A stretch of DNA of 63,984 nucleotides, the filler included, from Folioceros fuciformis (lineage: Eukaryota), in NCBI GenBank assembly GCA_049999805.1. It is 7 parts of 7 records of this genome, joined end to end, with 100 filler letters (N's around TTAATTAATTAA, not from the genome) between each part and the next. Parts side by side here need not be neighbours in the genome. Positions count along the whole stretch, not along the records: positions 50,436 to 58,107 come from JBNGIO010004201.1; 6 more parts are not named here. One strand, 5' to 3'. How positions within the stretch are numbered: position 1 is the first letter of the stretch; every line of letters starts with the position of its first letter. This document shows positions 9,446-62,934 of the stretch, in pieces. The notes beneath the pieces are model-generated. The model saw nothing but the letters and a program-made list of their open reading frames with translations, searched no databases and was not told where the DNA came from. Made by a program: the position numbers and the translations under genes.

Positions 9446-9497
9446 ACCTCTTANNNNNNNNNNNNNNNNNNNNNNNNNNNNNNNNNNNNNNNNNNNN

Positions 9498-9509
9498 TTA
9501 ATTAATTAA
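9498..9509. other. Artificial scaffold spacer TTAATTAATTAA inside N runs (also 20127, 33978, 50380, 58152, 62879)
   Basis: Identical 12-mer with stops in all six frames, centred in 100-nt N gaps six times. Confidence 0.95.
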
Positions 9510-9552
9510 NNNNNNNNNNNNNNNNNNNNNNNNNNNNNNNNNNNNNNNNNNN

Positions 9553-20060: not shown

Positions 20061-20599
20061 GGATGGCCTGCACATGACATGTNNNNNNNNNNNNNNNNNN
20101 NNNNNNNNNNNNNNNNNNNNNNNNNNTTAATTAATTAANNNNNNNNNNNNNNNNNNNNNNNNNNNNNNNNNNNNNNNNNNNNCCATATATACATGCTAAG
20201 TACATATGTACTTGCTAACTCAAAACTATCTTATTTAATCCATATGTACCTGATGGCTAAGGCGATATCAAAGCAAAAGGGATTTTGTACTTATACAAAA
20301 CTAAGTTAAACTCAAGATTCCAAATTTGACTAGCCTTGGTTAAACTTGTCACATAGCACACCAGAGCTATAGAATCAACAATACCACTCAATCATCTCTT
20401 GGTTCTTGATTCCCGACAACCTCCTCTTCAATCGCAATATTTTTTTTTTTGCCTTTCTCTCAGCAACATCATGTTGAGAGGTCTCCATTGCCTTTTTTAG
20501 TTCCACATAGACCTCCTCCTCTCTTTGCTCCATTGCCTCCACCTCCACCAATGTCAATGTCTTGGAAAAAAAAAACAATTGTCTTGTGCTTCAGGTAGC

Positions 20600-32210: not shown

Positions 32211-32504
32211 TGAAGGATCGGAAAGGGAGCCACATGATGAAGGAGAAGAGAAGAGGAGAGGAGAGGAAGAGAGGAGAAGAGGAGAAAGAGGTCTCACAAT
32301 GTCTCTCCCATCTCTCTCATCTCTCTTGAAAAGGGAGGAAGCTTCACAAGAAGCTCACAGGAAGCTAGACACGAAGCTTCCTAAAAATTAGCTTAAGCTA
32401 ATCTAAACTAATGATACTTAATTAGACACTAATCTTAGACTAGTTACATTAGCCTAATTAAACTAATAACATTAGCCTAAGCACATTGGGCTTTAATAAC
32501 CCTA
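32211..32504 (-). mobile_element. Isolated LTR of Copia family A
   Basis: Reverse complement resembles LTR 16055-16311 (TGAAGGATCG...GAAGCTTCACAAGAAG...TTAGCTTAAGCTAA...GCACATTGGGCTTTAATAACCCTA); terminal CA missing, no TSD. Confidence 0.88.
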
Positions 32505-32741: not shown

Positions 32742-34033
32742 GCGTGTCAATACCCATTTAATGGGGTTTGCTTGAAAGATTCTGGACAGCAGATGGCTTG
32801 GTCATCCTAGCCCCAGACCTGAACTTGGACCGCTCCAGCTGATCACTATTTTTAGGCTCACGGGACCCTCTTTGAAGTCTTTCAGACTTGCGAATGGCCA
32901 GTGCACCTTTCCAATCATAGCCTCCTGCGAGCCTTCCAGTTTCACCCACCGCCGCCTCTGGAGTCTCTATCCTGTCCTTTGTCCAAGGTGGGTCCAAAGT
33001 CCACCTCCACTCGGGGATAAGCGGCATGGATGGCCCATAGGCATGTTTTAGACGGACTTCAGCATAATATTGCCCCTCCTTCTGGTAGACACCACTGAAG
33101 AACTCAACCTCCTTACCGTCTTTACTCATTAGGACCCCTCCGGCCGACAAGAAGGTAAAAATCCTCTCCTATCCTTTATGCAGCTGGTGTAATGTAATGA
33201 TAAGTGGCAGCTGTTCCCCCCCCGCTTCCTATCATAACCAGAAAGGAGCAAAAGTCTTGAATCTTCCTCGTAACCATTAGGTTGACTGAATAGTGTCTGC
33301 TTTTCCTCCTTGATATTCCTTTCGACTCCCTGAATTCCTGGCCACTAAGCCCGCTCGATTCCTCCTGCCCAGGGTGAGGAAGCCCGTATTGTACCTCCTT
33401 GACCTATACAAGATCCCTTTCCCCGGACCTTAGCGGAGAGGTACATCCTTCATCTCCAGAAAAAATAGCTTGTACCTCATGCCAGTCGGATTCAGTATCC
33501 TCTTCATCCTTAGCACAAGGAGTGGAGAAAAAGTCATCCTCAGACACATATATTGCATTCTCTCTCATGATGGGACTGTCAAAGGCAAGCATGGATTTAT
33601 CCAAACACGATGCACCAGATTCATCCTCTCTGGAACCCCCTCTCACTTCACTCCTGTTGTGGGGTTAAAATATGGTATCCAGGGGTACCGCGAGGTCCAC
33701 ACAAGCCCTCTATGTTGTTGTAGCTCTGGGATTCGATCCCAAGGGAATGATTTGTGTTAAACTACATAGGTTAGCTTCTAAAGTCAATTAGCACTTAAAG
33801 CTCGACTGACCCACGCACACACGTCCAGTGCTCGGACCTTACCAAGCCCCCTTACTTCCCCACCGGACGACCCCTCAACCACCCGGTCGCCCCAAGGGCT
33901 ACCTTCCCCTAGACTACCCTTGGTTGCCCACCGNNNNNNNNNNNNNNNNNNNNNNNNNNNNNNNNNNNNNNNNNNNNTTAATTAATTAANNNNNNNNNNN
34001 NNNNNNNNNNNNNNNNNNNNNNNNNNNNNNNNN

Positions 34034-37000: not shown

Positions 37001-38585
37001 CCTTTCGAAGGTTCCATATTCTTCCTGTTCACCTCCTCTGTTAACAGGCTACCTTCTACATTTACAACGGTTAGACCATTGGCAGGAGCGGAATTACTCA
37101 GAGCCGCACGGAAGGTGTCCCAGCTCTCTGGTAATGTGACCAACAGAAACATAGCTCTCACGGAATCTGGGAATGAAATACCTTGAGATGAGAGCTGGCT
37201 GAAAATGGTATTGAACTCATTCAGATGATCGGACATCCTCGTCCCTTCCTTCATCTTCAAGTCCACCAGCTGTTTCAACCAATACACCTGAGAAGCCGCA
37301 CTTTGCTTCTCATACAAGTCACACAGCTTCTGCCATAGCTCGAAACTTGTGGTCTTGTCTTTCACGTTGAAGTAGACCGACTTCGACACTGTTAGCATGA
37401 TGGTAGACCTAGCAAGCTCATCTAGATCCTGCCACTTATCCTGAGTCATGCTAACAGGTTTCACTTTTAGCAGCTTGATGGGCTTGATCTGCTTCTTCTG
37501 TACTAAAACATTATACACTTGTTCTTTCCAGAACGGGAAGTTAGTACCATCTAACTTCTCGATATTGAACATGACATTTTCTGAGGACGTCATGCTTCAA
37601 AATCGATCCAAATCAACCAAAAAGCTAGTTTGAAATTGGTCGAAATGAAATGTAGATTCTACAGGTTACCCTCACAACTTCTTCCGAATCGTATGTCCAC
37701 AACTTGGGCCTCTGTCGCTCATAACAGGAATGTCCTCCTACGTCTGATCGAGATCCTGACTTCCTCAGCCGGGGTCAATACGGCGCCCACACTCTCGCTC
37801 CCGGCGTCTGCGATTTGTTCACTTTCCGGCGCTCGTCAATCGGGTCCTCGCTTCACTGGCACGCTCGTTTCGCGAGTCACGGGCACCCACGTGGTGCCCT
37901 GTGGCGCCTAGGTGGCATCCAAGTGGCGCCTATATGGCGCCTGCATGGCACCCAAGTGGTGCCCAAGTGGCGCCTGCGTGGAGCCCGCGTGGCATCCAAG
38001 TCTCGCCCGCGTGGCGCTTAAGTGGCGCCTAGGTGGTGCCCAAGCGGCGCTGATGTGGTGCCCGCTGGCGCTCACATGGCGCCTAGGTGGGCGCTCGTAT
38101 GGCGCTGATGTGGCGCCCAAGTGGCTCTCACATGGCGCCTAGGTGGCACCTGCATGGCGTCGAGGTGGCGCCTACATGGCGTCGAGGTGGCGCCTGCATG
38201 ACACCCCTCCCCCTCCTAGATGGCCATCTTCATGGTCTTGCTCCACAACCTGCTCTGATACCACTTGTAGGATCACTAGAGGAGCATGGTGGAGGAGAGG
38301 AGAAGAGGAGGCAAAGAGGAGAGGAGAAAAAGAGGTCACATTGAGAGTAGTTGGCAAGGGAGCTCAAGGGGGTATTTATACCCTCTAGAAGAGCTCCCTA
38401 GGAAGCTTCACAAGAAGCTCATAGGAAGCTACGCAAGAAGCTTCCTATAGATTAGCTTAATAAACTAATGATACTTAACTAGACACTAATCTTAGACTAA
38501 ACACATTAGTCTAAGCATATTAACTAGACACTAATCTTAGACTAAACACATTAGCCTAAGCACATTGGGCTTTAATATTCCTACA
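34034..38585 (-). mobile_element. Copia family A copy 2 (5'LTR, PBS, gag-pol; 3' end lost in gap)
   Basis: LTR 38266-38585; PBS TGGTATCAGAGC (38252-38263, minus); gag ATG 37593. Integrase/RT/RNaseH are near-identical to copy 1, with stops and a 20-bp duplication at 34861-34900. Confidence 0.95.
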
Positions 38586-45184: not shown

Positions 45185-45477
45185 AGCCTGTTCATGGGAG
45201 GAAAAAGAGGGGGTAGCCAACAATGGGGCACTAGGAAATTTTACTTACTTGAGGGCAGCACCGCAAGACACGGTGGAAACAACACACGAGGTCGCTGGCT
45301 TTTGCCTTCGCGTTGCTTTGGAGGGCGCTCTGCAGCGTGTTTCTGTGTTTGGTTGGCGTGATCGGCGGGTTTGGTGTACGAAATGATAGGGATGGCGTTG
45401 GGAGAGCTGCCCATGCTTCCCCCTTTCCTGCCTGTTGTTCGTGGCTGCCGCAGGTGCAGATGTAAACGCAGTTGCAG
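45185..45477. promoter_or_regulatory. Putative bidirectional promoter / 5'UTR region
   Basis: Divergent start codons of the CRTAC1-like gene (45184) and APC7 (45478) are under 300 bp apart. Confidence 0.45.
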
Positions 45478-47316
45478 ATGCAGGGACAGATGCAGATGCA
45501 GATGCTGCAGACTGGCATGAATCAAGTGTACGGCGTGAGCAATCGGGCACATATTATGGGTCCAGTGGCAGGCGACTTTGCAGGCGATTCACCGGACGGG
45601 TCCGGGGCAAGCATGGAGGCCATCCGGGAGCAGATGGTGTTGCTGCTGGAGCAGGGGTTGTACGATTCCGCGGAGCTGCTGGGGAGCTTCCTCTTGTCCT
45701 TGTCAGGGGCGGGCAGCGGGGATGCCTTGGCGGCCTCCAGGGCCGAGAACTTGGTGCTGTTTGGAGATGCGCTGTACGGGAGGAAGGAGCACAGGCGCGC
45801 TCTTAGCGCGTACAGGCAGGCTCTGCAGCACTGCAAGATGAGCCCCAAGGTGAACGGGGGTGGGGGCAGGATCGCTGGAGCGCCAGGAGTCAGGCCCGTG
45901 ACCAACTCTGCTGCGGCCTTCTCGCACGTCAATGAGAACGAGGTGAAGTACAAAATCGGGCTGTGCAATCTGGCGGTGCGCGATGTGCGGGCCGCCTTGT
46001 CGGAGATGGAGGGCATTCCTCCCAGGTCCAGGACTCTGAGGATCAACCTGGCCTTGGCCAAGCTGTATCGGATGACGGGGTACGAGAGGGCGTCCATCGC
46101 CTCGTACCGGGAGTGCCTGCGGCAGTGCCCTTACCTTCTGGAGGCCACCATTGCACTGGCGGAGCTCGGGGTGCCGGCCAAGGAGATATGCATGCTCTTC
46201 CCCCAGGCTGCAGGCAAGGTTGGGAGGCCTGGTGCAGAGCACATGGAGCAGCTACGCTGGCTGCATACCTTCGCCGAAGGCCACTGCAGCATCGCGCAGC
46301 ACGACCATAAGGGAGGGCTGGAGCTCTTCAGCAGTCTGGGACAGCGCTTTCCCAGCAGCCTGCACATCCAGCTGGAGACTGCCAAGGCAGAGACCGCCCT
46401 GGGCATGACGGACCAAGCGCTGCACAGCTTCGAGAAGGCCCGGCAGCTGGACCACTACAGCTTGACGGGCTTGGATGAGTATGCATTGTTGCTGCGGCAG
46501 AAGGGCGACAACATGGAGCTTAACCGGCTGCTCCATGACATGCTGGCCATCGACCATGCCAGGCCCGAGGTCTGGGTGGCATCGGCAGCGTACTGGGACA
46601 TGCAGGAGGACAAGCAGAGAGCCCTGACCTACACGGACAAGAGTGTGCAGCTGGATGAGAGGCACACCACTGCGTACATCATGAAGGGGAACCTTTCTCT
46701 GGCTCTCAACCGGCATGAGGCCGCTGTCATAGCCTTCAGGAAGGCGCAGTCCCTGAAGGCAGATCTCCGGTCTTACCAGGGCCTCGTGCGGGCGTACCTG
46801 ACGCTCTCCAAGCAAAAGGAGGCCCTGTGTGTAGCCCGGGAGGCCATGAAGGCCATGCCCCACTCTGCCAAGGCACTCACTCTCGTAGGAGATGTGTATG
46901 CACACACTCAGGATGGGCGGGAGAAGGCCCGGAAGTTCTATGAGTCGGCATTGCGATTGGAGCCTGGTTATCTGGGAGCTGTCTTGTCACTGGCCGATCT
47001 CAACGGCAAGGACGGGAGAGTGGAGGAGGCAATGGCGTTGCTACGCAGGTACCTCAAGAACTGCGCCGATGATGCTCTGCACACCAAGTTGGCTCAAGTC
47101 CTGGCGTCCACCAACAGAATAGGGGAGTCTCTGTCGCACTACCAAGCTGCCCTGAGCATCAACCCGCTGAATGATGCTGCTAAGAAGGGGTCCGACAGAT
47201 TGGCTATACTGATGAAGGGCCTAGATCCAGATGCTCAGGAAGAGGAGGAGGAACATGAAAGTGAGGAAGTTGACGGGCAGCCTGAAGAGGCTGAGTTTCT
47301 GTCTCACCGATTGTGA
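45478..47316 (+). CDS. APC7: Anaphase-promoting complex subunit 7 (TPR protein), intronless
   Basis: First ATG 45478. MEAIREQMVLLLEQGLYDSAELLG, ENLVLFGDALY, ENEVKYKI, YRECLRQCPY, RPEVWVA, DLRSYQGLV, FYESALRLEPGYLGA and acidic tail MKGLDPDAQEEEEE are typical of plant APC7. Confidence 0.9.
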   Translation: MQGQMQMQMLQTGMNQVYGVSNRAHIMGPVAGDFAGDSPDGSGASMEAIREQMVLLLEQGLYDSAELLGSFLLSLSGAGSGDALAASRAENLVLFGDALYGRKEHRRALSAYRQALQHCKMSPKVNGGGGRIAGAPGVRPVTNSAAAFSHVNENEVKYKIGLCNLAVRDVRAALSEMEGIPPRSRTLRINLALAKLYRMTGYERASIASYRECLRQCPYLLEATIALAELGVPAKEICMLFPQAAGKVGRPGAEHMEQLRWLHTFAEGHCSIAQHDHKGGLELFSSLGQRFPSSLHIQLETAKAETALGMTDQALHSFEKARQLDHYSLTGLDEYALLLRQKGDNMELNRLLHDMLAIDHARPEVWVASAAYWDMQEDKQRALTYTDKSVQLDERHTTAYIMKGNLSLALNRHEAAVIAFRKAQSLKADLRSYQGLVRAYLTLSKQKEALCVAREAMKAMPHSAKALTLVGDVYAHTQDGREKARKFYESALRLEPGYLGAVLSLADLNGKDGRVEEAMALLRRYLKNCADDALHTKLAQVLASTNRIGESLSHYQAALSINPLNDAAKKGSDRLAILMKGLDPDAQEEEEEHESEEVDGQPEEAEFLSHRL

Positions 47317-48091: not shown

Positions 48092-49633
48092 TCACACTCC
48101 TCCCGGACGTGTTTCTCTGTCCGGAGCCATACCCACATGTGCGTTGTTTGGCTTTGAGGGGTGGAAGGACGACAGTGTCATCTCCTCTCCCCCGTAGTAT
48201 TTCCCCTCGTGCTGAGAACCGTCCGCGTGGTAATAAGCCTGACCTCCGTGCCTAGTAGCGTCTAGCCCGCTCATCTCGTCGTCGGCAGAAATCCTTAAAT
48301 GCCCAAATCTGTGGAGGAGCCAAAACACGGGAGCCATGGTAGCAGTCACCCAGCCAGCAATCACCAAAATCTCTATGATCTGTGCGGCCAAGAGATTGCC
48401 TCCACCTCTCATGAACAATCCGTGATGATGAGCAGCCTCTCCGTACGCCTGCTTCACGTACTCCTCTTTGGCAAACAGACCAGTGAAGAGAAGACCCCAA
48501 GCCCCGCAGCCACCGTGCAGCTGAGCAGCTTCCAAAGGATCATCGTATTCGAATTTTTGGGCCAAGAGGTTGAGACCGATCAATACCCAGGCGGCACCAA
48601 TACCACAGACGATGGAAGCCCATGGATCGACTACAGCACAACCGGCAGTGATGGCTGCAAATCCTCCCAGCAAACCGTTGCACACATCTGTGACATTCCA
48701 GTGACCATTGAGCCACCTCCTAGTAAAAAGGGTCGCCAGGGCTGCCGAACAACCTGCCAGAGTAGTGGTGACAGCAGTTCGGCCGATGCCAGACCAATTG
48801 CCCTCGAACCCGTCGGAAAAGGGGACAAGAATCTTAAGCCAGGAGCCGGGATTGAAGCCGTACCAGCCAAACCAGAGAATGAACGTTCCAAGCACCACCA
48901 GAGTGGCACTGTGTCCCTTCATCACCACGGTACCGGTCTTGTCAAATCTGCCGATGCGAGGGCCTTCGATGAAAGCTCCCCAGAAGCCGGCAACTCCTCC
49001 GACCATGTGCACAACGCCACTACCAGCAAAGTCGATAGCGCCCGTGCCAAACAACTTGTTCGTCGTCTTGAAGGCAGAGGCCCAGCCGTAGGGAGACCAA
49101 ATCCAGTGCGACGTCACGGGGTAGACGAAGCCGGTCAGGATGGAGGAGTAAACCAGGTAGGCAACGAACTGAGTGCGCTCGGCAATGGAGCCGGAGGTAA
49201 TCCCCGCTGCAGCAATGGCGAAGGCCCACTGGTAGAGGAAGAAGGAGTAGTCATACTGCAGCTGGGTATTAGGCATGTCCTTGAGCGCGAACAAATTGGA
49301 GCCTATGAAGCCATTCCCGCCCTTCCCGAACGCAAAACCGTATCCGAAGAGGTAGTAGGAGATCCCCCCGGCAGCGGCGTCCAGAACGTTGGTGAGCATG
49401 ATATTCATGGTGTTCTTGGCCCTGACGGAACCTGCGCACAACATGGCGAAGCCCAGCTGCATGACGAAGACGAGGTAGGCGGAGAAGAGCAGATAAGTGT
49501 TGTCCACCGCCAGCCTGGTGGCAGACATGTTTGCCGAAGTTTCAGAGAACTGCTGGCACAGCAAGTCGACGAGTTGGCCGTTCCCATTGGCCGCACTGAG
49601 AAGCTGATCCCTGTAGTCCAAAGAACACGCCAT
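48092..49633 (-). CDS. AMT1: Ammonium transporter, plant AMT1 family
   Basis: ATG 49633. [77 protein letters not shown] and C-tail DATRHGG with the conserved regulatory Thr. Confidence 0.97.
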
Positions 49634-50573
49634 GGTTCCTCGCTCAGCTAGCACCGCCGACGCTGGAACAAACGCGCAGGCTTCACCCGGATCCTACTCC
49701 CCTGCCTTCAGTCCAGCCCCGAGATATCCTGCACAAGCGGACTTCAACGACTACACAATCCACCTGCGGACTTCAACGACTACACAATCCACCACTCCAT
49801 ACCTCTCCAACTCTGGACGAGTCGTCGCGCCGCAAGACTTACTGGAAATCCCTCCTCCAACTTGCCGCCGCCTGCCGGCAAACCACACCACACAACAAAA
49901 TCAACAATCCACCAATTCACTCCCGAGATCACAAAATCCCTCAACCAAAATCCACACGATCAGCCTCGCCCTCGCCAGCCACACCCTCTAATACTGAGCG
50001 CGCAGGCGCAGGCCCACACAAAGGCCCCGAATTCTGATACTGCGCGATCGTAGCAAACACCGCAGCCACAGCACATGCGCAGCACGTTGGCGCGGGCGAC
50101 TTACGCGAGAACACACCAGACAGAGGGGGGAACTGAGGAGCCTGGCTCACCGGAACATGGACGAGCCAAATGCCGAGACCGGGGAGCCCGCCGACACGCA
50201 GCCAACCAGACGAAGAGCGCAGAGCCTAGAGCAAGCTCAGCCCCCACCCCGGGGATGCAGACTATAAAAGGGGGCCAGAGGGACGAAGGAGGGCACGACG
50301 GTCCTCGTTCAAAACCCGTTCCGTCCACCGTACCCNNNNNNNNNNNNNNNNNNNNNNNNNNNNNNNNNNNNNNNNNNNNTTAATTAATTAANNNNNNNNN
50401 NNNNNNNNNNNNNNNNNNNNNNNNNNNNNNNNNNNGTGACACTGACATACCCAGATACCCGTTCCTATGTTCAAACCATTATTTTATTATTTATTATTAT
50501 TTTATTATTATTTAATCATTTAATATTATTATTTAATTGTATATATCTTTAATTAATATTAAACTAATCACCC

Positions 50574-50817
50574 AACCCTATGGCCTGGTACCAAACCTAA
50601 ACCTTCCCATGTCTGGGACCAAACCTATACCCACTCTTATAACCAAACCAACTATTTCCTGGTCAATTAACCTAATTAGCACAAAGAAAAATAGGGAAAA
50701 TGACCAGAAAATCAAGAAAAATTAGGGAAAATAAGTTGAAAAAGAAAACCAAACCATACCACTATTAACCCTTTTTCAACCAAAACAAACTACTACCCCA
50801 AACTTTGGAGGTTCACA
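50574..50817 (+). repeat. Dispersed ~245-bp repeat, copy 2
   Basis: Matches 32497-32741; followed by a 32-bp tandem duplication at about 50821-50885. Confidence 0.9.
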
Positions 50818-51329
50818 ACATCTCCGAGCTCTTGCAGACCACCACTAAAAAGTCTCCGAGCCCTTGCAGACCACCACTAAAAAGGCTCAGTATTGATGAC
50901 AGACCACATACGTATGCCTGCAGGAATAGCCTCCCCGTCCCCATTCCTGGTTCCTGCCCGTGTCCCCCGTTGGTCCAGTCCTGCAGGTTGGGGTTTCTCC
51001 CACCAACCCAACCAACCGGTTCCCACACGTCCCTGAGCACCTGTGATCGCCTGAGCAAAGGGCTGGCCACAACCACCCCACTCAAGGGAAATACACACTG
51101 ACATCCCAAGCCCTGTGGTTCCTCTCGCTACATGATTCCACAGGCAGAGCAACTTGAAACCTCTAGCCCTGGCCCCCTCGAGGCAGCTGCCTGCAACCTG
51201 CCTGTCCCTATGAACATGAGAGTTGTCTTTTGCAATGTGAAGGCGCAAGGGCAGCATGGCCGCGTCAGGTCAGTCGCCCTCCTCCTTCTGCTCCGCAACC
51301 TCCCCCTTGTCAGGCTTCTGGCTAGGCCA

Positions 51330-53580
51330 CTGACTAGCTGGATGGCTAGATCCTACTCGCCAGTCGATCAGCCACCAATTTGCCCGCAGTCGACCATGCT
51401 GCCTGCGCTGCTAACGCTGGGTCACCTGCCGAATGATCCCTGCTTTAATTCGCCTGCCCGCTTAGATCCATTGCCAGGCCGCCCACCCGGATCCGCTCAG
51501 CACGATCAGGCCACCTTCGCTGCTGGCCCGCTTACTGGCTGCTTGGTAGGCAAGATCCGCCTGCAAGGCCACCCCGCTAGCCAATCAACCCGGCCACTTG
51601 CCTCTTGTAGCCTGGCGGCTCCAGCCCTGATTTCGCCAGCCCGCCAACTAACTAGGCCGCCCGCAAGCCGGCTTGCTCTGTCCGGCCTCGACCAGCCTAC
51701 CTGCCTCCATCGGATCCCGCCCCTTGCTAGTATCCCACTAGCCCGTCATGGCGATCCGGCACCGGCTGCTTGCTGCCGTCCTAGCTTCCTTGTTCCGCCT
51801 ACTTAGCCGGCCAGTGCCACGATCTGCCTGCCTGGACTCCAGTAGCTGGGCCTCCGCGCTGCTGGGGCGCCTGCCCGCCCCCAGCAGCTGGCCCGCTAGC
51901 CAGTCGCTACAAACCGCTGGCTAGCTTGCTGGATCGCTAGCCAGATATCTAGCCAGACCCACCAAGCACCTCACTGGTCCCGTCCGATCATGCCCTGCCT
52001 GGCCACCTGGACTTGGTCGTCACCCATCCGCCAGGTCGCCTTCCTGGCTTGACTGCTCCCCAGCTTGCAGGCAGCCCGCCAGTTTGGCTGCCCAGCCCGG
52101 CTGGTTGAGCAGCCCGGCCGAACTGGCTTCACTGTCCTGCTTCGGTCCAGCCCTTGGTCGTCTGGCTGCTTGTAGCCAGCCAGCCCAATCAATTGGCTGG
52201 CCGCTGACGACCCGCTCAGCTCCTACCCCCCGACTCGAGGCCAGTCGAGCCGATTCCTGTAAGCCAACTCGCCTTGATGAGGCCGAGGATCAGCCCGAGC
52301 CAACTTGGATCTTAGCCGGCCGGCCTAGACGCTCCTTGGACACAGCATCACCCCCTTGCCCATCCAGCCTACGCCAAGTGGCTGCTGCCTAGCTAGATCT
52401 ATCTGCAAGTCACCTGCAAGCTGCCTCCCTGCGCCGGCTGGACAAGCACAGCCGGCTCAAGCCGGCTCCTGCCCTCCACATCCACCCAGGCTGCCTGGTT
52501 GGTTCTGCCACCTCCAGTCCACCCGCAGCCTGCAGACCCGGCCAGTCCGGCCTCCCTCTGGCTCCGACCTCACTTAGGTCAACCCCAGCTGCCAAGCCGC
52601 CTCCGACGCGACCTCCTGGCTGGCTGGATCCGCCAGCCACCCTTCGCCTAGCCAACTAGCCAACCTCCTGCCCGGCTTGCCTTCCCCCTGGGTCTGGCTA
52701 GGCAGCCCGATCACAGCCCTTCAGCTACCTGTGGCCCGGCTAGCCTGCTAGCAGCCAGCCAGCCCGGCTGGTCGAACAGTAACACACAGCCAGGCCGAAC
52801 CCGGCCGGAAGGATCTGACCGGGCAACATCCCTCCAAGACCCTACTTAGCCAGCTCTTCGGTTGGCTCCAGGGTCGGCCATCCAGCCCAGGCGAATCCAG
52901 CACCACCCCTGGCTGATCCGCGTCGACCTCATGTCCCGACCTGCCTCCAGCACTCACCTTCCGACCGGTTCCAAGCCAGCTAGCCTCCAGGCCTGTCCCC
53001 ACCGCCCAGGATCAAGCCTCCAGATTCCACCAACAGCCATCCTGCCCAGTTTGGCCGCACCAGGCTGGATCAGCCACCCACGGCTCGGCTCCAAAGTCGG
53101 GCAGCCAGGCCGCCATCGGGCCTAACCTGCGGGTCTACAAGCAGCCAGGCCATTGTCACCCGGCCTGGCTGATGTGCCGCCATCCGCCCTTACCGAGTCG
53201 CCAGACACCCAACTACCGGGCTGCAGGGTTGGCCGGCCACAGCCCCAGCTAGTTGCCCGATCTTTGAATCCGGTCCTGGCTAGATCCGCCAATCTGAGTG
53301 TCCGCCTGCCTCTTGTCGAGACCATGCGGCCAGTGCCTTGATTCCACCGTGAATCCATCCTGGCCCGTTCCTGCAAGCCAAGCGACCTTCCTGCTCTGCC
53401 TCGGCCAGTCCCCCCACCCCAGATCCATGCCCAGCTTGGTTTCAGGCCTGATTTGCTCCCACCGGCCCAGCTAGCTGACTCTACATGCACAGCTGACCAA
53501 CCTTGCGCCGCCCTGACTCCGACTGCATCCCGCCGACCAGGCCCGTCCTCAGCCCAGGTCAAGTCAGCTAATCAGTGTGG
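51330..53580. repeat. C-rich low-complexity tract (GCCAGCC/GCTAGC-type motifs), probably TE non-coding interior
   Basis: High GC, strong C skew, recurrent short motifs, no coherent protein in any frame. Confidence 0.5.
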
Positions 53581-53584
53581 CTAG

Positions 53585-53866
53585 TGTAGGGATTAAACCC
53601 CAATGTGCTTAGACTAATGTGTTTAGTCTAAGATTAGTGTCTAGTTAGGTATCATTAGTTTAGAGAAGCTTAAGCTAATCTATAGGAAGCTTCTTGCGTA
53701 GCTTCCTGTGTGCTTCTTGTGAAGCTTCCTAGGGAGCTCTTCTAGAGGGTATAAATACCCCCTTGAGCTCCCTTGTCTATGGTGAGAGTGTGACCTCTCT
53801 TTCTCCTCTCCTCCTTGCCTCCTCCTCTCTTCTCCTTCACCATGGAGCTCCTAGAGCGTTCCTTCA
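53585..53866 (+). mobile_element. Isolated complete LTR of Copia family A
   Basis: TGTAGGGATTAAA...CCTTCA matches 16055-16311; flanks GCTAG and CTTAC are not a TSD. Confidence 0.92.
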
Positions 53867-54279
53867 CTTACCCAGAGTCGACGCTCCCCCTGGCCTGGCC
53901 ATCTGGCTGGCTAGCTTTTCCCGAATCTGATGCTCCCACAACCTTAGGCCCTCCCTGCGTGACCGCCTGCTCTCAGGCCCTCGGTCCCAGGCACCTCTAT
54001 CCTCGTCTCCCACTTCCAACAGCATCAGCCTCTGGCTCACCTCCCATGACCCGTTCTAGGGTTCCTGTTCCTCTGTTACCTTATCTTGAGGAACTGTAGC
54101 CCGTGTCTATCTACCACACACCCTCCTAGATCCTATCGACTCACCATTAATCTAGCTACTAATCTAACCTAATCTTCTGACCATTTCACTACAGGATTCA
54201 CTCAGAGATTCCAAAAAGAAAAATCCTACCATTTTCTAGGGACTTGTTCAGCATGTGGAGTCCACACTATGATAACTCT

Positions 54280-56269
54280 GGCGATATGAGATACCGTGTG
54301 TGGGATCCAGAAGCCAAGAAGGTTGTTCGCAGCAATGACGTGTTCTTCAATGAGACCAAGATGCACAAGAAGCCTACTCCAACCGTGGAGGTGCAACGGG
54401 TGGTCTTCCAAGAAGATGGACTTGACCGTCACGCGCAGGTTAAATATTGTGATGTGCNNNNNNNNNNNNNNNNNNNNNNNNNNNNNNNNNNNNNNNNNNN
54501 NNNNNNNNNNNNNNNNNNNNNNNNNNNNNNNNNNNNNNNNNNNNNNNNNNNNNNNNNGTGATTGACAAGGACAAGTGGGAGAAGGCGATGCAGTCGCAAA
54601 TGGATTTGCTCCATAAGAACCAAACTTGGGAGTTGGTTCGGTTGCCTAGGGGTAAGAAGGCATTGCCATGCAAATGGGTGTATAAGATGAAGATCATACC
54701 CCATGATGGCAAACCCAAGTACAAGGCACGATTGGTTGCTAAGGGTTTTAAGCAACAGCAAGGTATTGACTTTGATGAGATTTTCTCACCAGTTGTCAAA
54801 ATGACCACCTTGCGATGTGTCCTTGGTCTGGTTGCGAGGCACGACATGGAACTTATCCAAATGGATGTGAAGTCGGCATTTCTGCATGGTGATCTTTAGG
54901 AAGAGGTATACATGCAGCAACCAGAGGGTTTCATTGAGAAGGGCAAAGAGAATCTCGTGTGCAGGTTACAGAAGAGCCTTTATGGTTTGAAGCAGGCACC
55001 CACGTATTCAAGTTCCACTCATTTATGCTTTCTCAAGGCTACAAGCGTAGCGATGAGGATCATTGCCTCTATATGAAGCAAGCTAAGGATGGAAGCTTGC
55101 TCATTCTGGTCCTCTATGTGGATGATATGCTAATTGTTGGGACTAACAGTGATGAGATTTCAGCATTGAAGTCCAAGTTGAATGGTCGCTTTAACATGAT
55201 AGACTTGGGAGAGGCAAGCCATCTTCTTGGCATGCGTATTCATCGAGACAGACAGAAGTATTTGCTTTACTTATTTCAGACTAAATACATTAAAAGGGTG
55301 CTTTAACGTTTCAACATGGAGAAGGGGAAGCTATTGAGTACTCCATTGCCTTCATATGTGAAACTTCCGAGCAAGGATTGTCCAAGCTCTGCGAAGAACA
55401 AAGATGAAATGGCGAAGTTTCCATACTCATCAACTATAGCGAGTTTGATGTATGCAATGATTGCTACACATCCTAACATTGCTTTTGCAGTGGGAGTGGT
55501 TAGCAGGTTTATGTCAAACTTTGGTAGGAAGCATTGGGAGGCAGTAAAACGAGTTATGAGGTATTTCAATGGTACAAAAGCTTTGTGCATATGTTTTGGT
55601 AGTGAAGATGCATCTGTCGTGAGATATACGGATGCTGATTATGCAGGGGATATGGACAAAAGGAGGTCCACATCAGGTTATGTCTTCATGTGCACTAGAG
55701 GGGCAGTTTCATGGCGATCTCGTTTACAATCGTGCATAACGCTTTCTACCACAGAAGCCGAGTATGTTGCAGTGACTGAGGCTTGCAAGGAAGCCATGTG
55801 GCTTACTCGTTTAGTGGGAGACTTGGGGATCAAGGTTGAGCTGCCAATGTTGCTTTGTGATAGCCAGAGTGCTATCCAATTGGTGAAGAATCCAGTGTTT
55901 CATGCGAAGATCAAACATGTGGAAGTGAAGTATCACTTCATTCGAGAGGTGTTGGAAGACAAGAGGGTACAACTTGTCAAAGTTCACACCAGTCAAAACC
56001 CTGCAGATATTCTTACCAAGGGGCTCTCTACGGAGCAATTTGCACAAGCTCGGATAGTCATGGGCATGAGGTAAACCACTCTCCTATGAAGGTAAATTGG
56101 CCTTTAAGTTATTAAAGCTCAACGTGCTTAGACAAATGTGTTTAGTCTAAGAGTAGTGTTTAGTTAAGTATCATTTGTTTAGATTAGCTTAAGCTAATAT
56201 GTAGGAAGCTTCTTGCATAGCTTCCTGCGTGCTTCTTGTGAAGCTTCCTTGGGAGCTCTTCTAGAGGGC
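54280..56269 (+). mobile_element. Copia family A copy 3, 5'-truncated (integrase tail, RT, RNaseH, partial 3'LTR)
   Basis: YRVWDPEAKK..., KARLVAKGFKQ, YVDD, ADILTKGL...MGMR* at 56074. The PPT and LTR start are deleted (CCTTTAAG joins TTATTAAAG); partial LTR about 56108-56269. Confidence 0.93.
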
Positions 56270-56600
56270 TTCCACTACTGGTTGCTCCTTCTGTGATCGC
56301 TTTCTCCATTTCGTGACCGTCGTCGGGTTTCGACTACCTCCCTTCTTAAACTAAGTCCACACATAGACCAATAACAGCCTCTGCGCCTAACGATCGTATT
56401 CCATGAAGCCCGTTTGGCGCACTTTTAAATTTACACCATCCTAGGCACATATCCATCTTTAAGCTGGTTTTAAAAAACCGTATTGTTTGGACGTGTGTTG
56501 GACATAACCCATAATCATAAATAACTAGAACACCACACGCGTACCGAAACATGAAGTAGAAGACTGAAAACGTTTCGACAAAAATCCAAATCGTCCTTTG

Positions 56601-56624
56601 AGTGCGCCGGTCTACCGGCGCACT
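56601..56624. repeat. GC-rich palindrome AGTGCGCCGGT-CT-ACCGGCGCACT
   Basis: Perfect 11-bp arms; inverted sister copy at 58038-58063. Confidence 0.9.
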
Positions 56625-56747
56625 GAACAGTGTGTTTCACTAAAATCAATCTGGCTATGTGCATGCTATGAATAGAAAACCTTTACCAGTCAAATTTAAA
56701 TAAAGGCATATTGTACCACAAACTGCAAGCACTTTCAATCTACTTCT

Positions 56748-57921
56748 TTAGATCAAGTCATGGACGTCCTGGATGGCCTCAGAATCGACAACTATCTCTA
56801 CATCTCTAAGACGTTGGCCCTCTGTATCGCCAAAGTCGTCTCCTTCCACCTCCAGTATCGAGAAATGTGGATCGTCCACTGTCTGAGGTGGAAGCGTGCC
56901 ATTCTCATCCCAAATGGTCAGCGCATACAGGTCTTCAGCTGGTCGGTCATCTGAGTGCGTAATAACTTCACCTTTCTTTCCCAGCAGACTGTAAACCTGC
57001 ATCCGTCGATCCACGCTTTCGTCCACACATACTTCCTTGGCCCAAAACTTTGTGGGCCCATGAGAGAAGGGGTCTGTGCTGATCTCTTCATCAGCGTCTG
57101 GCAAAGATCTAAGGCCATTCACTCTCTGCATCATGTAAGTCGTGCATCGTATATCGATGTTCATCGTGACTTCATGCCTCCCTCTCTGAATAGCAACCTG
57201 AAGGAATGATCCGGATCCTGCACAGGCATCCGCTACCCAGTCCCCCTCAATCAAAAACATGTTCACTAGCATCCCCATAAGCCCCAACGGCTTCTGGTAT
57301 GGGGAGACGACCATCGAATCTGCGAGTGAAAGAGGTGCTTTTTCACAACAGCACCATGCCTTATCACTCTTGGCAATAGAAAACCCTGATTCGGAATAAG
57401 GCTGCTTTGATGGTCTAAGCTTCCAAGTGGACTACACTGCCAACTGTCAGGCACTCCACAGTCTCCACTGCCCCTGCATTCTGCGGAATATTCGTCTTTT
57501 CCCAAACCAGTGTCTATATGCTGCCTTTCTTGCACCACGTCCTACGTGCCTCTCTCGCTTGTGAGATCAGGTCAACTCCATGCATAAGCACCACTCGATA
57601 AACATTGCTAGTCGTGCATTCCAAAAACCCCTTGATCATATCTTCAAGTTCCTCGTTAGTCAACTGCCTATCGTAATCACGTCGTTGAAGCCCACGAGGC
57701 AAATCAGCGAACAACAGGGTATAAGGTCTCTTTACCAAAAAACCACTCATGTCAAGAACACTTTGCTGCATCACTTGATACTTGGTTTTTTGGTTGCTGT
57801 TGGACACTCTGAACTCTGACAACCCAGCATCCATGTCAACGTCCGCTAGCTTCTGCTTCTCCTCTTCTAACCGTTTCCAATTCTGTGCTGAGTACACGTA
57901 ATCCTGGAACGGCTTGGGCAA
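56748..57921 (-). pseudogene. Decayed beta-class N4-cytosine/N6-adenine DNA methyltransferase-like gene
   Basis: Ordered motifs YTLLFADLPRG (motif IV, DPPY-like), *TLVWEKTN, TVECLTVG, then SPYQKPLGLMGMLVNMFLIEGDWVADACAGSGSFLQVAIQRGRHEVTMNID (motifs X-I-II). In-frame TAG at 57514-57516 and frameshifts near 57420 and 57320. Confidence 0.72.
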
Positions 57922-58037
57922 CGATTCCAGGTCATTTATATCTGCAGGTTTCTACCAACAAATACATTCGTCAGCAAACTATGTGGCATTCATTCTTCAA
58001 AATGGTTAGACTACGCCGTTGGCTTGGTCAATGGTTA

Positions 58038-58063
58038 GAGTGCGCCGGTAGACCGGTGCACTC
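58038..58063. repeat. GC-rich palindrome GAGTGCGCCGGT-AG-ACCGGTGCACTC
   Basis: Inverted near-copy of 56601-56624; a possible third copy begins AGTGCGC at 58101, at the gap edge. Confidence 0.88.
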
Positions 58064-58207
58064 CAGCCACACGGTGCCTCCAAGCAGCCACTCAGGCTGA
58101 AGTGCGCNNNNNNNNNNNNNNNNNNNNNNNNNNNNNNNNNNNNNNNNNNNNTTAATTAATTAANNNNNNNNNNNNNNNNNNNNNNNNNNNNNNNNNNNNN
58201 NNNNNNN

Positions 58208-58253: not shown

Positions 58254-58953
58254 AATGAGCCCTTCGGCACCTAGGGGTTTCTCAACATTTGCACCCGTCC
58301 CACCCACAAGGAAGGCTCCCGTGTAGCTTTGTTGAAATTCAACGATGCTCCAGCAGGCTCGCATGGTCCAAGATATGGCATCTGTGGCCCGTTTGAACGT
58401 GCAGGTCATTTTCCAGGCACTTCCCTATATTGAACAAAATGAAACTCATACTTGGGTTGGCTCGGGTCCCTTGTGTGCGAGAGCAGGGAAGGAGAGGATG
58501 CGCGTCTTGTGCAAAGCACAGGACTCGTAGCCGAGCCTGGAGATGTCACCTGCGGCAAAATGTCGCAAGGTGGGGTGCTGCACTAGCTTTTGAGGTGCAA
58601 GTACAGGTGCAGGCCACAATGCTACAGTGTCCGCGGCAGGTCCAGGTGCAGGTGCAGGTGTTATTGCTTGTGCAGGTATTAATGACACCCTCCCCACGTT
58701 CGAATGCAGGTTCGGGGGTGCTACTTCGTCGAGGGACAGTTGAGCCTTGGTATATGCAGCAGTGTTCAAGGTCCTGAGCACAGATTTTCTACCCGCCGTT
58801 CAGCAGCTTTTCAGGAACTGCCATACCCCTTCCAGGTTAGTACGCCAACCCTTGCCTCATTGCTGTGGGGGCTGTGGGTTAGTGCGCGTAGAGAAGACGC
58901 GTTTGTGAACGGCCTAGTCTTGTCCATGCACCTGCCACAACGGTACTTGAACG

Positions 58954-61641
58954 ATGGCCACAGTATGGCAATCGGATCCGTTGTCTACCCAACAAATTGG
59001 TGTATTTACAGGGATTCTACGAAGTGCTCCTGCTAACCTCAGATCAGGGAGTGGAACCCTGGCAAGCAAAGCCTCCACGAGCAGCATTGGAAAAAGCCCA
59101 GAACTTCCAATCGCGAAAAAGTGTGACGGTTTTTCAAGAGATGGTCGTTGCAAGGAGCAGCAACACTTATGGCGACAATTTTTTCTGGACCCTACCATGT
59201 GGTGGGATAACAGAAGAGAGAAGAGGAGCTCCCGTTTGCCTGACTTCCGACGTAAGGGGTCTGGCGAGGTGCTGTGGTTAAACAGCATGTGTAAGCCAGC
59301 TTGGGTTGATGAGCAGCTGGTTTCCTGGGATATGCAGATGCGCCATGGTTCTTCTCTTTCCGATTACAGCTCTCCCGACAAGCCTATACCTGGAAGACGT
59401 GCAGGATCGCAACTGACCGTCGTAACGGCCACTACCGTGAGCACGTTCTGTCAGCAGGGGAAGCTTTCTGAGGCCGTTGGAGCACTGGAATCTCTGGCTC
59501 ACACAGACTCTGCCATTTCGCAGTCTGTCTTGTACACTGTGCTAAAACTGTGTACAGTTAAGAAGGATTTGGTTGTGGGGCGTCGAGTTCATGTCCTCGT
59601 TGCCAAACTTGGGTACGAGTCGAGTTCATTCTTGGCGAACCATATCTTGCGCATGTACGCATGTGTAGGGCAGCTGCAGGAGGCCATGGATGTGTTCACC
59701 AGGGTTGGCAAACCGAACGTGTTCATGTGGTTTTCAATAATTTCTGCATATGCCAAGCTCGGGAAGCCCCAGGAGGCCATACAACTGTACCATGAGATGC
59801 GTTGTTCAGGAGTAAAGGCGGATGCGCACGTCTTTGTGGCTACCCTTCAAGCCTGCGCACTTGCCGCTGACCTGGAATCTGGCAGGAAAGTGCACCGTGA
59901 TGTTGTACACAGTGGCATTCCTACTAACTTGTTTGTGGGCAACTGCCTGGTGGACATGTATGCAAAATGTGGTGACGTGAATTATGCACGCGAGGTTTTT
60001 GACAGCATGGCCACCAAGGATGTGGTGACATGGAATACCCTGATAGCTGGGTATGCGCAGCAAGGACTGGGCCAAGAGGCGCTCGTTGTGTATTCACAGA
60101 TGGAGGAGGCGGGCCTCGTTTTGGCCGACCGCGTTACTTTTGCTTGCCTTCTGAAGGCGTGTGGAATCACTGGTGCCTTGCAGAAAGGCAGGCAGCTGCA
60201 TTCACTGATCGTGGAAAGAGGACTGCTAGATAACATTGTGGTGGGCACCTGTCTGGTGGACATGTATGCGAAATGTGGTGAACTGGAAGATGCACGCCAG
60301 GTTTTCCACAACATGAGCTCAAAAAATGTGGTGACATGGACATCGCTGATTGCTGGGTATGCAAGATGGGGTGACATGGAAGATGCCCGCAAGATTTTTG
60401 ACAGCATGGAAACGAAAAATGTGGTGACATGGACAGCGCTCATTGCTGGGTATGCACAACGAGGGCTCGGCCAAGAGGCGCTTGTGGTGTATGGACAAAT
60501 GGAGGAGGCGGGCCTTGTTTTGGCTGACCATGTTACGTTTGCTTGCCTTCTGAAAGCCTGTGGAAGCAGCGGTGCCGTACAGAAGGGAATGCAACTGCAC
60601 TCGCAGATTGTGAAAAGAGGGCTGCTGAATAACGTTGTGGTGGGCAACTGCCTCGTGGACATGTATGCAAAATGTGGTGAACTGAAAGATGCACGCCAGG
60701 TTTTTGAAAGCATGGCCACAAAGGATGTGGTGACGTGGACAGCGCTGATTACTGGCTATGGTGTTTGTGATGAGGGCCAGAAGGCCCTTGCTTGTTTTGA
60801 GGAGATGTTAGCTGCCGGTGTTCAGCCTAACGAGGCTACTTTCACTTCCCTTATAGCAGCATGCAGTCATGAGGGATTAGTTCATGAGGGTCGCAAACAC
60901 TTCGATTCCATGGCTGAACAGCATGGCATCAAACCTACCATGGAGCATTACACGTGCATGATTGATCTTCTCGGGCGTGCTGGCCATTTAGACGAGGCAC
61001 AGAAGATGCTATCATCATGTGAGGGCCAAAGTAATGTTGTGGGCTTGACGTCTTTGTTGAATGCCTGCAAAAGTCATGGGGACGTGGAGAGAGCTGTGTG
61101 GTGTTTTGAAAGCATTGTCAGGATGGACCCTCAAATGGCGTCAGCCTATGTGCTCATGGCTAATGCCTACGCAGATGCTGGTATGTGGAGCGATGTAGAC
61201 AGGATTGAAATACAGAGAAGGGCAGCAGGAGCTAATAAGAAACCTGCAGTGGCGACAATTGAGGTGGAGAATCAAGTACATACATTTTTGGTGGGAGAAA
61301 GGAGAGAGGATCTTGCGCGCAAGATAGAGAGCACGAATGCACGTGTGAAGCAGGAAGGAGGGCATGCACCTCACACACAGTTGGTGTTGAAGCCACTCGG
61401 TGAGAAGGAGAAGGAAGATATGCTTTGTGGCCATGCCGAGAAGCTAGCTTTGGCATTTGGTCTGTTGAACACTCCAAGTGGGACACCTCTGGTGGTAACG
61501 AAGAATCTACGCATGTGCAGTGACTGCCACAGTTCCACGGAAATAATGTCAAGGCTTGAACATAGGGACATTGTTGTAAGAGATGGGTACCGTGTTCATC
61601 GATTTACAGCTGGTTGTTGCAGTTGCAAGGGTCGACCGTGA
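58954..61641 (+). CDS. PLS-class PPR RNA-editing factor, DYW:KP (GRP) type, with N-terminal OSB-like PDF motif; paralog of 1805-4744
   Basis: 895-aa intronless ORF with about 16 PPR motifs including one SS motif, E1/E2, then KKPAVATIEV...HAEKLALAFGLL...CSDCH...CCSCKGRP. Confidence 0.95.
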   Translation: MATVWQSDPLSTQQIGVFTGILRSAPANLRSGSGTLASKASTSSIGKSPELPIAKKCDGFSRDGRCKEQQHLWRQFFLDPTMWWDNRREKRSSRLPDFRRKGSGEVLWLNSMCKPAWVDEQLVSWDMQMRHGSSLSDYSSPDKPIPGRRAGSQLTVVTATTVSTFCQQGKLSEAVGALESLAHTDSAISQSVLYTVLKLCTVKKDLVVGRRVHVLVAKLGYESSSFLANHILRMYACVGQLQEAMDVFTRVGKPNVFMWFSIISAYAKLGKPQEAIQLYHEMRCSGVKADAHVFVATLQACALAADLESGRKVHRDVVHSGIPTNLFVGNCLVDMYAKCGDVNYAREVFDSMATKDVVTWNTLIAGYAQQGLGQEALVVYSQMEEAGLVLADRVTFACLLKACGITGALQKGRQLHSLIVERGLLDNIVVGTCLVDMYAKCGELEDARQVFHNMSSKNVVTWTSLIAGYARWGDMEDARKIFDSMETKNVVTWTALIAGYAQRGLGQEALVVYGQMEEAGLVLADHVTFACLLKACGSSGAVQKGMQLHSQIVKRGLLNNVVVGNCLVDMYAKCGELKDARQVFESMATKDVVTWTALITGYGVCDEGQKALACFEEMLAAGVQPNEATFTSLIAACSHEGLVHEGRKHFDSMAEQHGIKPTMEHYTCMIDLLGRAGHLDEAQKMLSSCEGQSNVVGLTSLLNACKSHGDVERAVWCFESIVRMDPQMASAYVLMANAYADAGMWSDVDRIEIQRRAAGANKKPAVATIEVENQVHTFLVGERREDLARKIESTNARVKQEGGHAPHTQLVLKPLGEKEKEDMLCGHAEKLALAFGLLNTPSGTPLVVTKNLRMCSDCHSSTEIMSRLEHRDIVVRDGYRVHRFTAGCCSCKGRP

Positions 61642-62834: not shown

Positions 62835-62934
62835 NNNNNNNNNNNNNNNNNNNNNNNNNNNNNNNNNNNNNNNNNNNNTTAATTAATTAANNNNNNNNNN
62901 NNNNNNNNNNNNNNNNNNNNNNNNNNNNNNNNNN

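Follow-up and report, generated by a model that had tools for sequence, protein, structure and literature searches.

How does a DNA methyltransferase of bacterial type come to lie, in pieces, in the nuclear genome of a land plant, and what was it once part of? The question is raised by a stretch of 63,984 bases from the genome assembly of Folioceros fuciformis (GCA_049999805.1), here called the window, whose positions are used throughout. An earlier note on this DNA had read the segment 56748-57921 as the relic of a beta-class N4-cytosine/N6-adenine (N4C/N6A) methyltransferase, of a family that might be mobile-element-borne or horizontally acquired, and had placed it beside the N4-methylcytosine (4mC) writers of Marchantia and rotifers. 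As laid out below, the relic is probably the dead last exon of a gene that joins a ParB-like part to a methyltransferase and that is carried by a many-copy, transposon-like repeat of a land plant. Genes of this class are known from algal transposons; their occurrence in land plants is apparently unreported, and a literature search found no paper describing a ParB-like/methyltransferase family there.

The identity of the module follows from several lines of comparison. On the minus strand, a first stop-to-stop piece (57951-57517) reads ...LPKPFQDY...LLFADLPRGL..., a second (57513-57418), behind an in-frame TAG, reads TLVWEKTN...VETVECLTVG, and a third, in another minus frame (57431-56751), holds ...VVSPYQKP...GDWVADACAGSGS...GRHEVTMNID... 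followed by an acidic tail that ends with the stop codon of the exon at 56748-56750. The succession LLFADLPRG, VWEK, VETVECLTVG, PYQKP, DACAGSGS, GR..NID and acidic tail, as first described in the earlier note, is therefore present on a single strand and in beta-class order, i. e. in the permuted arrangement with motif IV (DLPRG) upstream of motif I (DACAGSGS) on the coding strand. The 227-residue C-terminal piece (56751-57431, minus strand) matches Pfam N6_N4_Mtase (PF01555) with an E value of 6.7e-7 and 29.9 bits, above the curated gathering cut-off of 26.7 bits. A family profile built from 13 relatives and used for a frame scan recovers the module in two frames (57924-57418 with 88.3 bits and E 8.3e-29; 57350-57060 with 101.5 bits and E 8.2e-33), and tblastn of the related proteins P0003, P0004, P0013 and P0007 supports an exon at 56748-57951; for the middle stretch, tblastn gave nothing significant. 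Among solved structures, the best chain for the C-terminal piece is M.RsrI, whose DFFAGSGV aligns with ADACAGSGS of the relic, so that motif I for binding of S-adenosylmethionine (AdoMet) is present. With a Pfam score above the cut-off, profile matches in two frames and solved enzymes among the matches, the assignment to the beta class was borne out.

The damage to the reading frame can be followed with contigs from three DNA runs (X1, X2 and X3) of one sample carrying the same organism label, which were placed on positions 56269-58107. The profile alone demands one TAG (57514-57516) and at least one net frameshift. The count of one TAG and two frameshifts given previously agrees with this insofar as the TAG and one shift are seen by the profile and the second shift is backed by paralogous contigs; the TAG is, however, not the sole stop. 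A further one lies in the N-terminal frame at 57415-57417, where the covering paralogous contigs have CAG (57417 A>G, which turns TAG into CAG on the minus strand, in 7/7 contigs of X1 and 9/9 of X2). Around the probable first break, some contigs have an extra base after 57393 or 57394, others diverge from 57393 or 57395, and the loop at this place is shorter in the window than in the relatives. At the second break the extra base lies at 57322, with depths of 51.6/59.1, 69.3/86.5 and 16.9/37.4 in paralogous contigs. Since the family profile gave no match in the third reading frame and tblastn no significant one for the middle stretch, this second frameshift rests on the paralogous contigs and on the reading of about ten residues.

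At its upstream end, the exon opens at 57951 rather than at 57921. The TAG directly before it is CAG in relatives within the organism (57954 A>G in all 7 X1 contigs, all 6 X2 contigs and most of those from X3). In the distant locus L015 the corresponding exon starts with tttcacaCAG/AAACCA (the slash marks the junction), and Lys-Pro opens the exon in L015 and window alike. As this exon start is common to the window and L015, the TAG is a conserved 3' splice site and no further break, and hence what the window contains is a single exon out of a larger gene. Judged from its sequence, the window copy is non-functional, as its frame is interrupted by two TAGs and broken twice, and Asn follows motif I where the relatives keep an acidic residue.

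Not every departure from the textbook enzyme is decay. The deviation of the catalytic motif from DPPY/SPPY noticed earlier is genuine, as DLPRG keeps the Asp and one Pro of (D/S)PPY and has Leu in place of the first Pro and Arg in place of Tyr. The same DLPRG, though, is found in all five clade members that span motif IV (the window, P0003, P0004, P0013 and P0053). Loci from metagenome contigs show ADIPYG, ADVPYG or ADIPHG at this place. In a tree built from the module's N-terminal half (36 rows; a motif filter had removed P0053 and P0029), 32 family rows including the window split from four DPPY-bearing, prokaryote-like rows at 100/98, and the four DLPRG rows group as a clade at 96/93 that lies within the D(I/V/A)PYG lineages, with the window on a long end branch. 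Being clade-wide and nested, DLPRG is a derived, conserved trait and not a product of decay in the window copy. The exchange of Tyr for Arg at the base-stacking position may mean that catalysis is altered or lost in the DLPRG clade.

The family to which the relic belongs is eukaryotic. With the C-terminal piece as query, 50 matches at E<=1e-3 were found among 1.84 billion representative proteins. The closest relatives (P0003, P0004, P0005, P0006 and P0013, later also P0052 and P0053) are 37-49% identical; named, more distant members are Gb_37443 of Ginkgo biloba, a protein of Riccia sorocarpa and one of Adiantum nelumboides. These relatives score 30-65.7 bits against Pfam N6_N4_Mtase and share family signatures, i. 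e. N/S-P-Y-Q-K-P where prokaryotic enzymes have HPTQKP, an invariant W-x-K, and an acidic tail after LP(D/T)E..E. A scan of metagenome contigs yielded 80 loci, about 40 of them clearly of the eukaryotic type, and a protein search with a profile of the family alignment A2 gave 9 matches. No nucleotide-level match emerged between the contig of the window and 85 fetched loci. As to intact copies, which the earlier note had expected for the Folioceros lineage, longer open frames do exist (446 uninterrupted residues in P0003, 376 in L006), but only in other organisms.

Against solved beta-class enzymes, the A2 profile matches over the whole domain 8urk (E 8.2e-13), DpnA, CcrM, M.MboIIA and M.RsrI, running end to end with 8urk and M.MboIIA. 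This comparison bears on the idea that the relic stems from a genome-wide 4mC writer of the type of Marchantia MpDN4MT1 or rotifer N4CMT, recently transferred from bacteria. Both belong to the same Pfam family, the liverwort Riccia has a family member, and the profile also matches the N4CMT chains of Adineta at E 3.1e-8. Yet N4CMT is matched only around motif I and the N6A enzymes score higher and over the whole domain; motif IV of the plant family starts with Asp and not with the Ser that marks N4C enzymes (PMC4738411); the plant family has introns, a ParB-like fusion and palindrome arrays (see below); and MpDN4MT1 is described as having no extra domains (PMC8885841). We regard such an origin as very improbable. 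The kinship with the Marchantia and rotifer enzymes suggested at the outset thus shrinks to membership in one Pfam family, while the plant family itself is a ParB-like fusion accompanied by palindrome arrays.

Relatives with more complete loci reveal what preceded the exon. L015, L006 and their kin are multi-exon genes with GT..AG introns. Their N-terminal region is followed by the stretch ...YYVIGGSHSAEARRQL...LLAWDHNNDNDYR... and by a helical linker (WRAMQGIKDEQLL.SVLSRV...), after which come one or more methyltransferase exons and, last, the acidic tail. An N-terminal GG(S/N)H(S/G)A..A...WDHN is found in 12 loci. The ParB-like N-terminal stretch is present in L010-L015, L022-L025, L034 and L035 as well as in P0007 from Ginkgo and in P0020 and P0026 from Adiantum, where it is the one also seen in L015 and L006. 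The N-terminal exons of these two loci contain nothing that Pfam recognizes as a domain; the sole Pfam hint for this part is a sub-threshold match to DUF6551 in Ginkgo P0007 (E 0.019). The AF2 model of the N-terminal part (mean pLDDT 63) was placed by Foldseek next to ParB/Spo0J/Noc/PadC at all of ranks 1-23 among the rows listed, with KorB at ranks 25 and 48, a best E value of 3.6e-3 and a probability of up to 0.99. On the basis of this model, a ParB-like nature of the N-terminal part, including a helix-turn-helix, is moderately supported.

Palindromes are abundant around these genes. In the window, a 24-nucleotide palindrome (AGTGCGCCGGT-CT-ACCGGCGCACT) occurs twice, once on each side of the exon, with 0 copies expected in shuffles. 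The upstream copy sits in the same place as an array in an L006 intron (3181-3489). In contigs from the organism's runs, one palindrome is linked to the next over a spacer of 12-40 unrelated letters, and many contigs diverge right at the palindrome, which points to arrays with variable spacers and explains why the scaffold breaks there. Arrays are likewise seen in L015, L013, L024, L025, L034, L041, L006 and L010, where the palindromes measure 22-38 nucleotides and differ in sequence by lineage. L015 has ten copies of CCAATTCGATAC-N3-GTATCGAATTGG with a period of 41 nucleotides upstream of the gene; its sister copies L013, L024, L025, L034, L041 and L043 have variants of a TCGATAC-N3-GTATCGA core upstream or downstream; L006, L007, L010 and L031 have GGAGCGAGAC-N2-3-GTCTCGCTCC upstream, in introns and downstream, one array occupying the intron that immediately precedes the methyltransferase exon, the same place as that of the window palindrome; and L008 has an TCATGATATCATGA core with two copies of a related palindrome 64 nucleotides apart. 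In 10/12 sequences, palindrome counts exceed those of all 30 dinucleotide shuffles. The arrays are candidate binding sites of ParB type. A Helitron-type hairpin end was also considered for the palindromes and dropped, as they occur in arrays and inside introns.

The relic unit is present in many diverged copies in the genome. On the 1.84 kb covered by the three runs, 326, 393 and 370 contig pieces of at least 80% likeness were placed; those of X1 divide into 24 at >=99%, 65 at 95-99%, 101 at 90-95% and 136 below 90%. X3 also displays a strong excess of G>A over C>T (104 vs 38), with several G>A sites in X3 alone, a pattern expected of libraries made by bisulfite-type or enzymatic conversion; if X3 is such a library, it could report 5-methylcytosine (5mC) over the relic repeat. 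One presumed RNA run had no pieces on the stretch and is uninformative on expression. Over 15 paralogous loci of a different lineage keep 70-85% identity in their introns as well as their exons and have in common a non-coding block that lies about 600 nucleotides beyond the stop; some of these copies carry stop codons. In three related paralogous loci (L031, L007 and L010), the methyltransferase gene stands tail-to-tail with a large open reading frame (ORF) of Pfam family DUF7869 (E 8.9e-50), in whose translation D..D..GHTH..ID motifs can be made out by eye. Its nearest atlas clusters contain multi-copy eukaryotic proteins, one with DDE_Tnp_ISAZ013 in 11% of its members. The ORF is a probable transposase of the element, as far as motifs can tell; no paper mentioning DUF7869 was found in a literature search. 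Of the two origins initially proposed, mobile-element-borne or horizontally acquired, the mobile one is therefore the better option, with the copies, the palindromes and DUF7869 in three loci on its side.

These copies also speak to the question of whether the segment belongs to the plant at all. Contamination by, or insertion from, a bacterium, phage or giant virus would fit the observation that the language-model clusters lying closest to P0003 consist of phage N6_N4 methyltransferases, and the methyltransferase part of the Ginkgo protein shares about 26% identity with enzymes of phages. It is nonetheless scarcely credible in view of a copia pol fragment on the same contig, the splice acceptor at the conserved exon start, the many copies in the organism's DNA runs, and the NPYQKP signature and the tree, both of which set the family apart from prokaryote-like rows; a scan of viral contigs gave 5 distant matches that cover motif I only. 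An endogenous giant-virus origin was dropped, no viral genes having been seen. The description as nuclear repeat DNA free of contaminant accordingly stands, based on copia on the contig, the shared splice acceptor and hundreds of diverged contig pieces.

Several points weigh against the reading as part of a ParB-like/methyltransferase transposon. The link to both the fusion and the transposon is drawn through relatives that are just 30-49% identical. The ParB fold was obtained from a model of modest confidence with no row at E<=0.001, and in an hhalign comparison of the N-terminal alignment with one bacterial ParB-methyltransferase only the methyltransferase part was matched. On the relic's scaffold, tblastn found no ParB-like exon, the scaffold ending 156 nucleotides upstream, where the upstream exons are cut off, and neither a transposase nor a DUF7869 ORF. 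Searches for longer, fused forms within the DLPRG clade, with the window piece and P0003 as queries, returned none, which is weak evidence. The naming of DUF7869 as a transposase relies on motifs and a wide, multi-copy spread in eukaryotes, as its protein matched nothing among PDB sequences and showed no fold or sequence match to a transposase. Element termini or target-site duplications could be defined in no lineage, contig depth does not equal copy number, and L021 and L033 have no palindrome excess over dinucleotide shuffles.

Part of these points would suit an ordinary host gene that has become a pseudogene, in a family grown by duplication, with palindromes that are cis-regulatory or unrelated. 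The window scaffold lacks a transposase and element ends, L021, which has no palindrome excess, sits 3.3 kb from a short-chain dehydrogenase gene, and annotation treats the members from Ginkgo, Riccia and Adiantum as hypothetical proteins of the ordinary sort. What makes this explanation unlikely are the hundreds of diverged contig pieces on the stretch, the more than 15 paralogues conserved through introns and a downstream non-coding block, the stop codons in several copies and the repeatedly adjacent DUF7869 gene; in addition, the algal precedent puts such genes inside transposons. We thus retain the transposon-borne ParB-like/methyltransferase gene as the probable source of the relic.

How might such a gene work? 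The intact gene, as found in relatives, encodes a single long protein composed of the N-terminal region, a ParB-like part with helix-turn-helix, a beta-class methyltransferase and the acidic tail. In the likeliest model, which is inferred, the ParB-like part would bind the palindromes of its own element and thereby bring the methyltransferase to the element's DNA, which would then receive N6-methyladenine (6mA) or 4mC, the Asp-first motif IV favoring adenine N6. On this model, the gene would travel as a passenger on its transposon and either mark or shield it. A bolder and rather doubtful extension holds that ancient-lineage land plants (a gymnosperm, ferns, liverworts and Folioceros) harbor self-methylating transposons with a site-directed amino-methylation system of their own. 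The DLPRG clade, long kept with Arg in place of the catalytic Tyr, would then have found a new way of catalysis or would serve, without catalysis, as a partner or reader. If this were true, plant transposons would set marks other than 5mC on themselves, an epigenetic layer in plants that has not yet been looked for.

The window copy itself is dead and without functional consequence; the interest lies in the family. The relic leads to a whole family, for the most part without annotation, that has members in Ginkgo, in ferns and liverworts and in at least one further plant and appears to follow the logic of giant transposons in brown and red algae, i. e. a predicted ParB-like reader of palindromes fused to a DNA-modifying enzyme. 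The open frames of P0003 and L006 provide natural proteins, together with cognate sites, to probe self-marking of transposons with 6mA or 4mC. Calls of these two modifications over repeats in such genomes could have a real enzymatic source.

The surroundings of the relic have to be read with the composition of the window in mind. Six identical linkers (44 N, TTAATTAATTAA, 44 N) lie between unplaced scaffolds; as the window is a chain of scaffolds, adjacency across any linker is meaningless. The relic's scaffold extends from 50436 to 58107 and contains a 100-N scaffolding gap at 54458-54557, so the sure context is just the 3.55-kb contig 54558-58107. The only other gene-like feature on this scaffold is the Ty1/copia pol fragment (Pfam RVT_2 at 3.1e-28 and 3.6e-17, plus SH3_retrovirus), which is interrupted by the gap; the part from RVT_2 to the tail (54558-56268) shares the contig with the relic. 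The fragment is an unrelated neighbor outside the methyltransferase element. Its 3' tail (56075-56268) recurs with 85-91% identity, one copy lying on its own scaffold and the others on four more, and belongs to a multi-copy copia family. Whether the relic is embedded among transposable elements, as had been stated, can be judged only within 50436-58107.

Other features of the window were recorded in passing. Within the relic's scaffold, 51100-53600 reaches 62% G+C and has long Pro/Ala/Ser-rich open frames on both strands; two frames tried gave no Pfam match, and the region resembles repeat DNA of low complexity. Two PPR genes, both long and free of introns, carry an E motif and a DYW deaminase domain (58951-61641, plus strand, and 1805-4747, minus strand; 896 and 980 residues) and indicate that the assembly comes from an RNA-editing land plant; they are on other scaffolds and so are no neighbors of the relic. 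The preceding scaffold has ordinary genes, namely an ammonium transporter ORF (48092-49693, minus strand; Pfam E 7.4e-126) and a TPR-repeat ORF (45466-47316, plus strand). Exact direct duplicates with 100% identity adjoin 10-N gaps (62925-63224/63455-63754, 300 nucleotides; 61913-61959/61970-62016, 47 nucleotides) and are probably artifacts of gap closing or assembly.

Table 1. Coordinates of the features discussed. Positions refer to the window unless a locus is given; a slash in the splice site marks the junction.
Feature	Position	Strand	Evidence or remark
Decayed last exon: methyltransferase module and acidic tail, stop included	56748..57951	-	ORF pieces, Pfam, family profile, tblastn
3' splice acceptor, ttgttggTAG/AAACCT	57952..57954	-	sequence; CAG in paralogous contigs
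Motif IV variant DLPRG, at DPPY position	57691..57705	-	translation, alignment; profile vDlPyG aligns to aDPPYG of 8urk_A
In-frame TAG, at His/Ser/Glu position of relatives	57514..57516	-	translation, tblastn, profile
W-E-K motif (VWEK)	57496..57504	-	W168 and K170 invariant in family alignment A2
Second TAG, N-terminal frame; counts as in-frame only with a first shift at 57393-57395	57415..57417	-	
Probable first frameshift or deletion breakpoint	57393..57395	-	contigs of DNA runs
Second frameshift: window one base short compared with most paralogous contigs	57322..57323	-	contig depths
PYQKP (family signature N/S-P-Y-Q-K-P)	57288..57302	-	alignment
Motif I, AdoMet-binding loop DACAGSGS	57207..57230	-	Pfam, alignment
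Palindrome copy 1, core AGTGCGCCGGT-CT-ACCGGCGCACT	56598..56627	.	about 125 nucleotides downstream of stop
Palindrome copy 2, inverted at centre, presumed intron	58038..58063	.	about 90 nucleotides upstream of exon; scaffold ends 44 nucleotides on
Palindrome arrays	L015:599-1046; L006:180-620, 1737-2047, 3181-3489, 4678-4967; L013:4826-5669		
DUF7869 ORF	L031:966-2981; L007:1945-3177; L010:2994-3539	-	Pfam; adjoining gene tail-to-tail
Ty1/copia pol fragment (integrase end, RVT_2, RNase H region) and 3' tail	54181..56268	+	Pfam RVT_2, SH3_retrovirus
Copia tail copies	10725-10885, 16013-16207, 53592-53749 (own scaffold), 32336-32457 (-), 38381-38517 (-)		
Artificial linkers	9454-9553, 20083-20182, 33934-34033, 50336-50435, 58108-58207, 62835-62934	.	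N44-TTAATTAATTAA-N44

Among known systems, the closest counterparts come from algal transposons. According to a description of 2025 (PMC12477816), the 21.5-kb element Sola1-1_Ec32 of Ectocarpus carries a gene for a 1104-residue protein with ParB-like and N4C/N6A methyltransferase parts on the strand opposite to the transposase; the proposed role of this protein is binding and modification of the element that carries it. The plant family resembles it in combining the same two parts and, in L031, L007 and L010, in lying on the strand opposite to the (probable) transposase gene. It differs in its hosts, land plants instead of a brown alga, and in the DLPRG motif IV of the window clade; the likeness is one of description, not of sequence. 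In the red alga Bostrychia, a genome preprint (bioRxiv 10.1101/2025.02.11.637652) describes ParB-like accessory proteins beside tandem inverted-repeat arrays, for which binding and modification of the own transposon are proposed as well. Of the accessory genes of Plavaka elements, PAG3 combines a ParB-like domain with a 2OG oxygenase and PAG2 an N6-adenine methylase with SET. A ParB-like domain, inverted-repeat arrays beside the gene and a DNA-modifying transposon cargo are common to both systems, whereas the Bostrychia methylase stands apart from the ParB-like domain, which is paired with the oxygenase, and the plant family has ParB-like part and beta-class methyltransferase in one gene.

With the prokaryotic enzymes M.RsrI, M.MboIIA, CcrM and DpnA, the plant family shares the permuted order, W-x-K, QKP, the motif I loop and profile matches over the whole domain, and among bacterial ParB-methyltransferase fusions, P0058 carries both Pfam ParBc and N6_N4_Mtase. 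Prokaryotic and phage enzymes are, in contrast, only about 26% identical. In the plant family, D(I/L/V/A)P(Y/H/R)G takes the place of (D/S)PPY and NPYQKP that of HPTQKP, and the genes have spliceosomal introns, code for an acidic tail and lie in a eukaryotic repeat context. Like MpDN4MT1 and rotifer N4CMT, it places a methyltransferase domain of the bacterial N6_N4 type in a eukaryotic nuclear genome. Those 4mC writers are portrayed as stand-alone or chromodomain-fused products of single or duplicated host genes with a recent bacterial origin and demonstrated 4mC activity; the plant family, with MpDN4MT1 compared by description only, is a many-copy, ParB-fused one with an Asp-first or degenerate motif IV. 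DNA amino-methyltransferases are commonly held to be few in land plants, and a 2015 review says so for the N6A enzymes. Finally, METTL3-METTL14 of the MT-A70 clade offers an analogy to the DLPRG proteins, as one paralogue of this pair has a disrupted active-site motif and is thought to be inactive (PMC4738411). The present data hold no evidence that DLPRG proteins pair with D-I-P-Y-G proteins in this manner, and the analogy is confined to the permuted amino-methyltransferase fold, METTL3-METTL14 belonging to another clade and acting on RNA.

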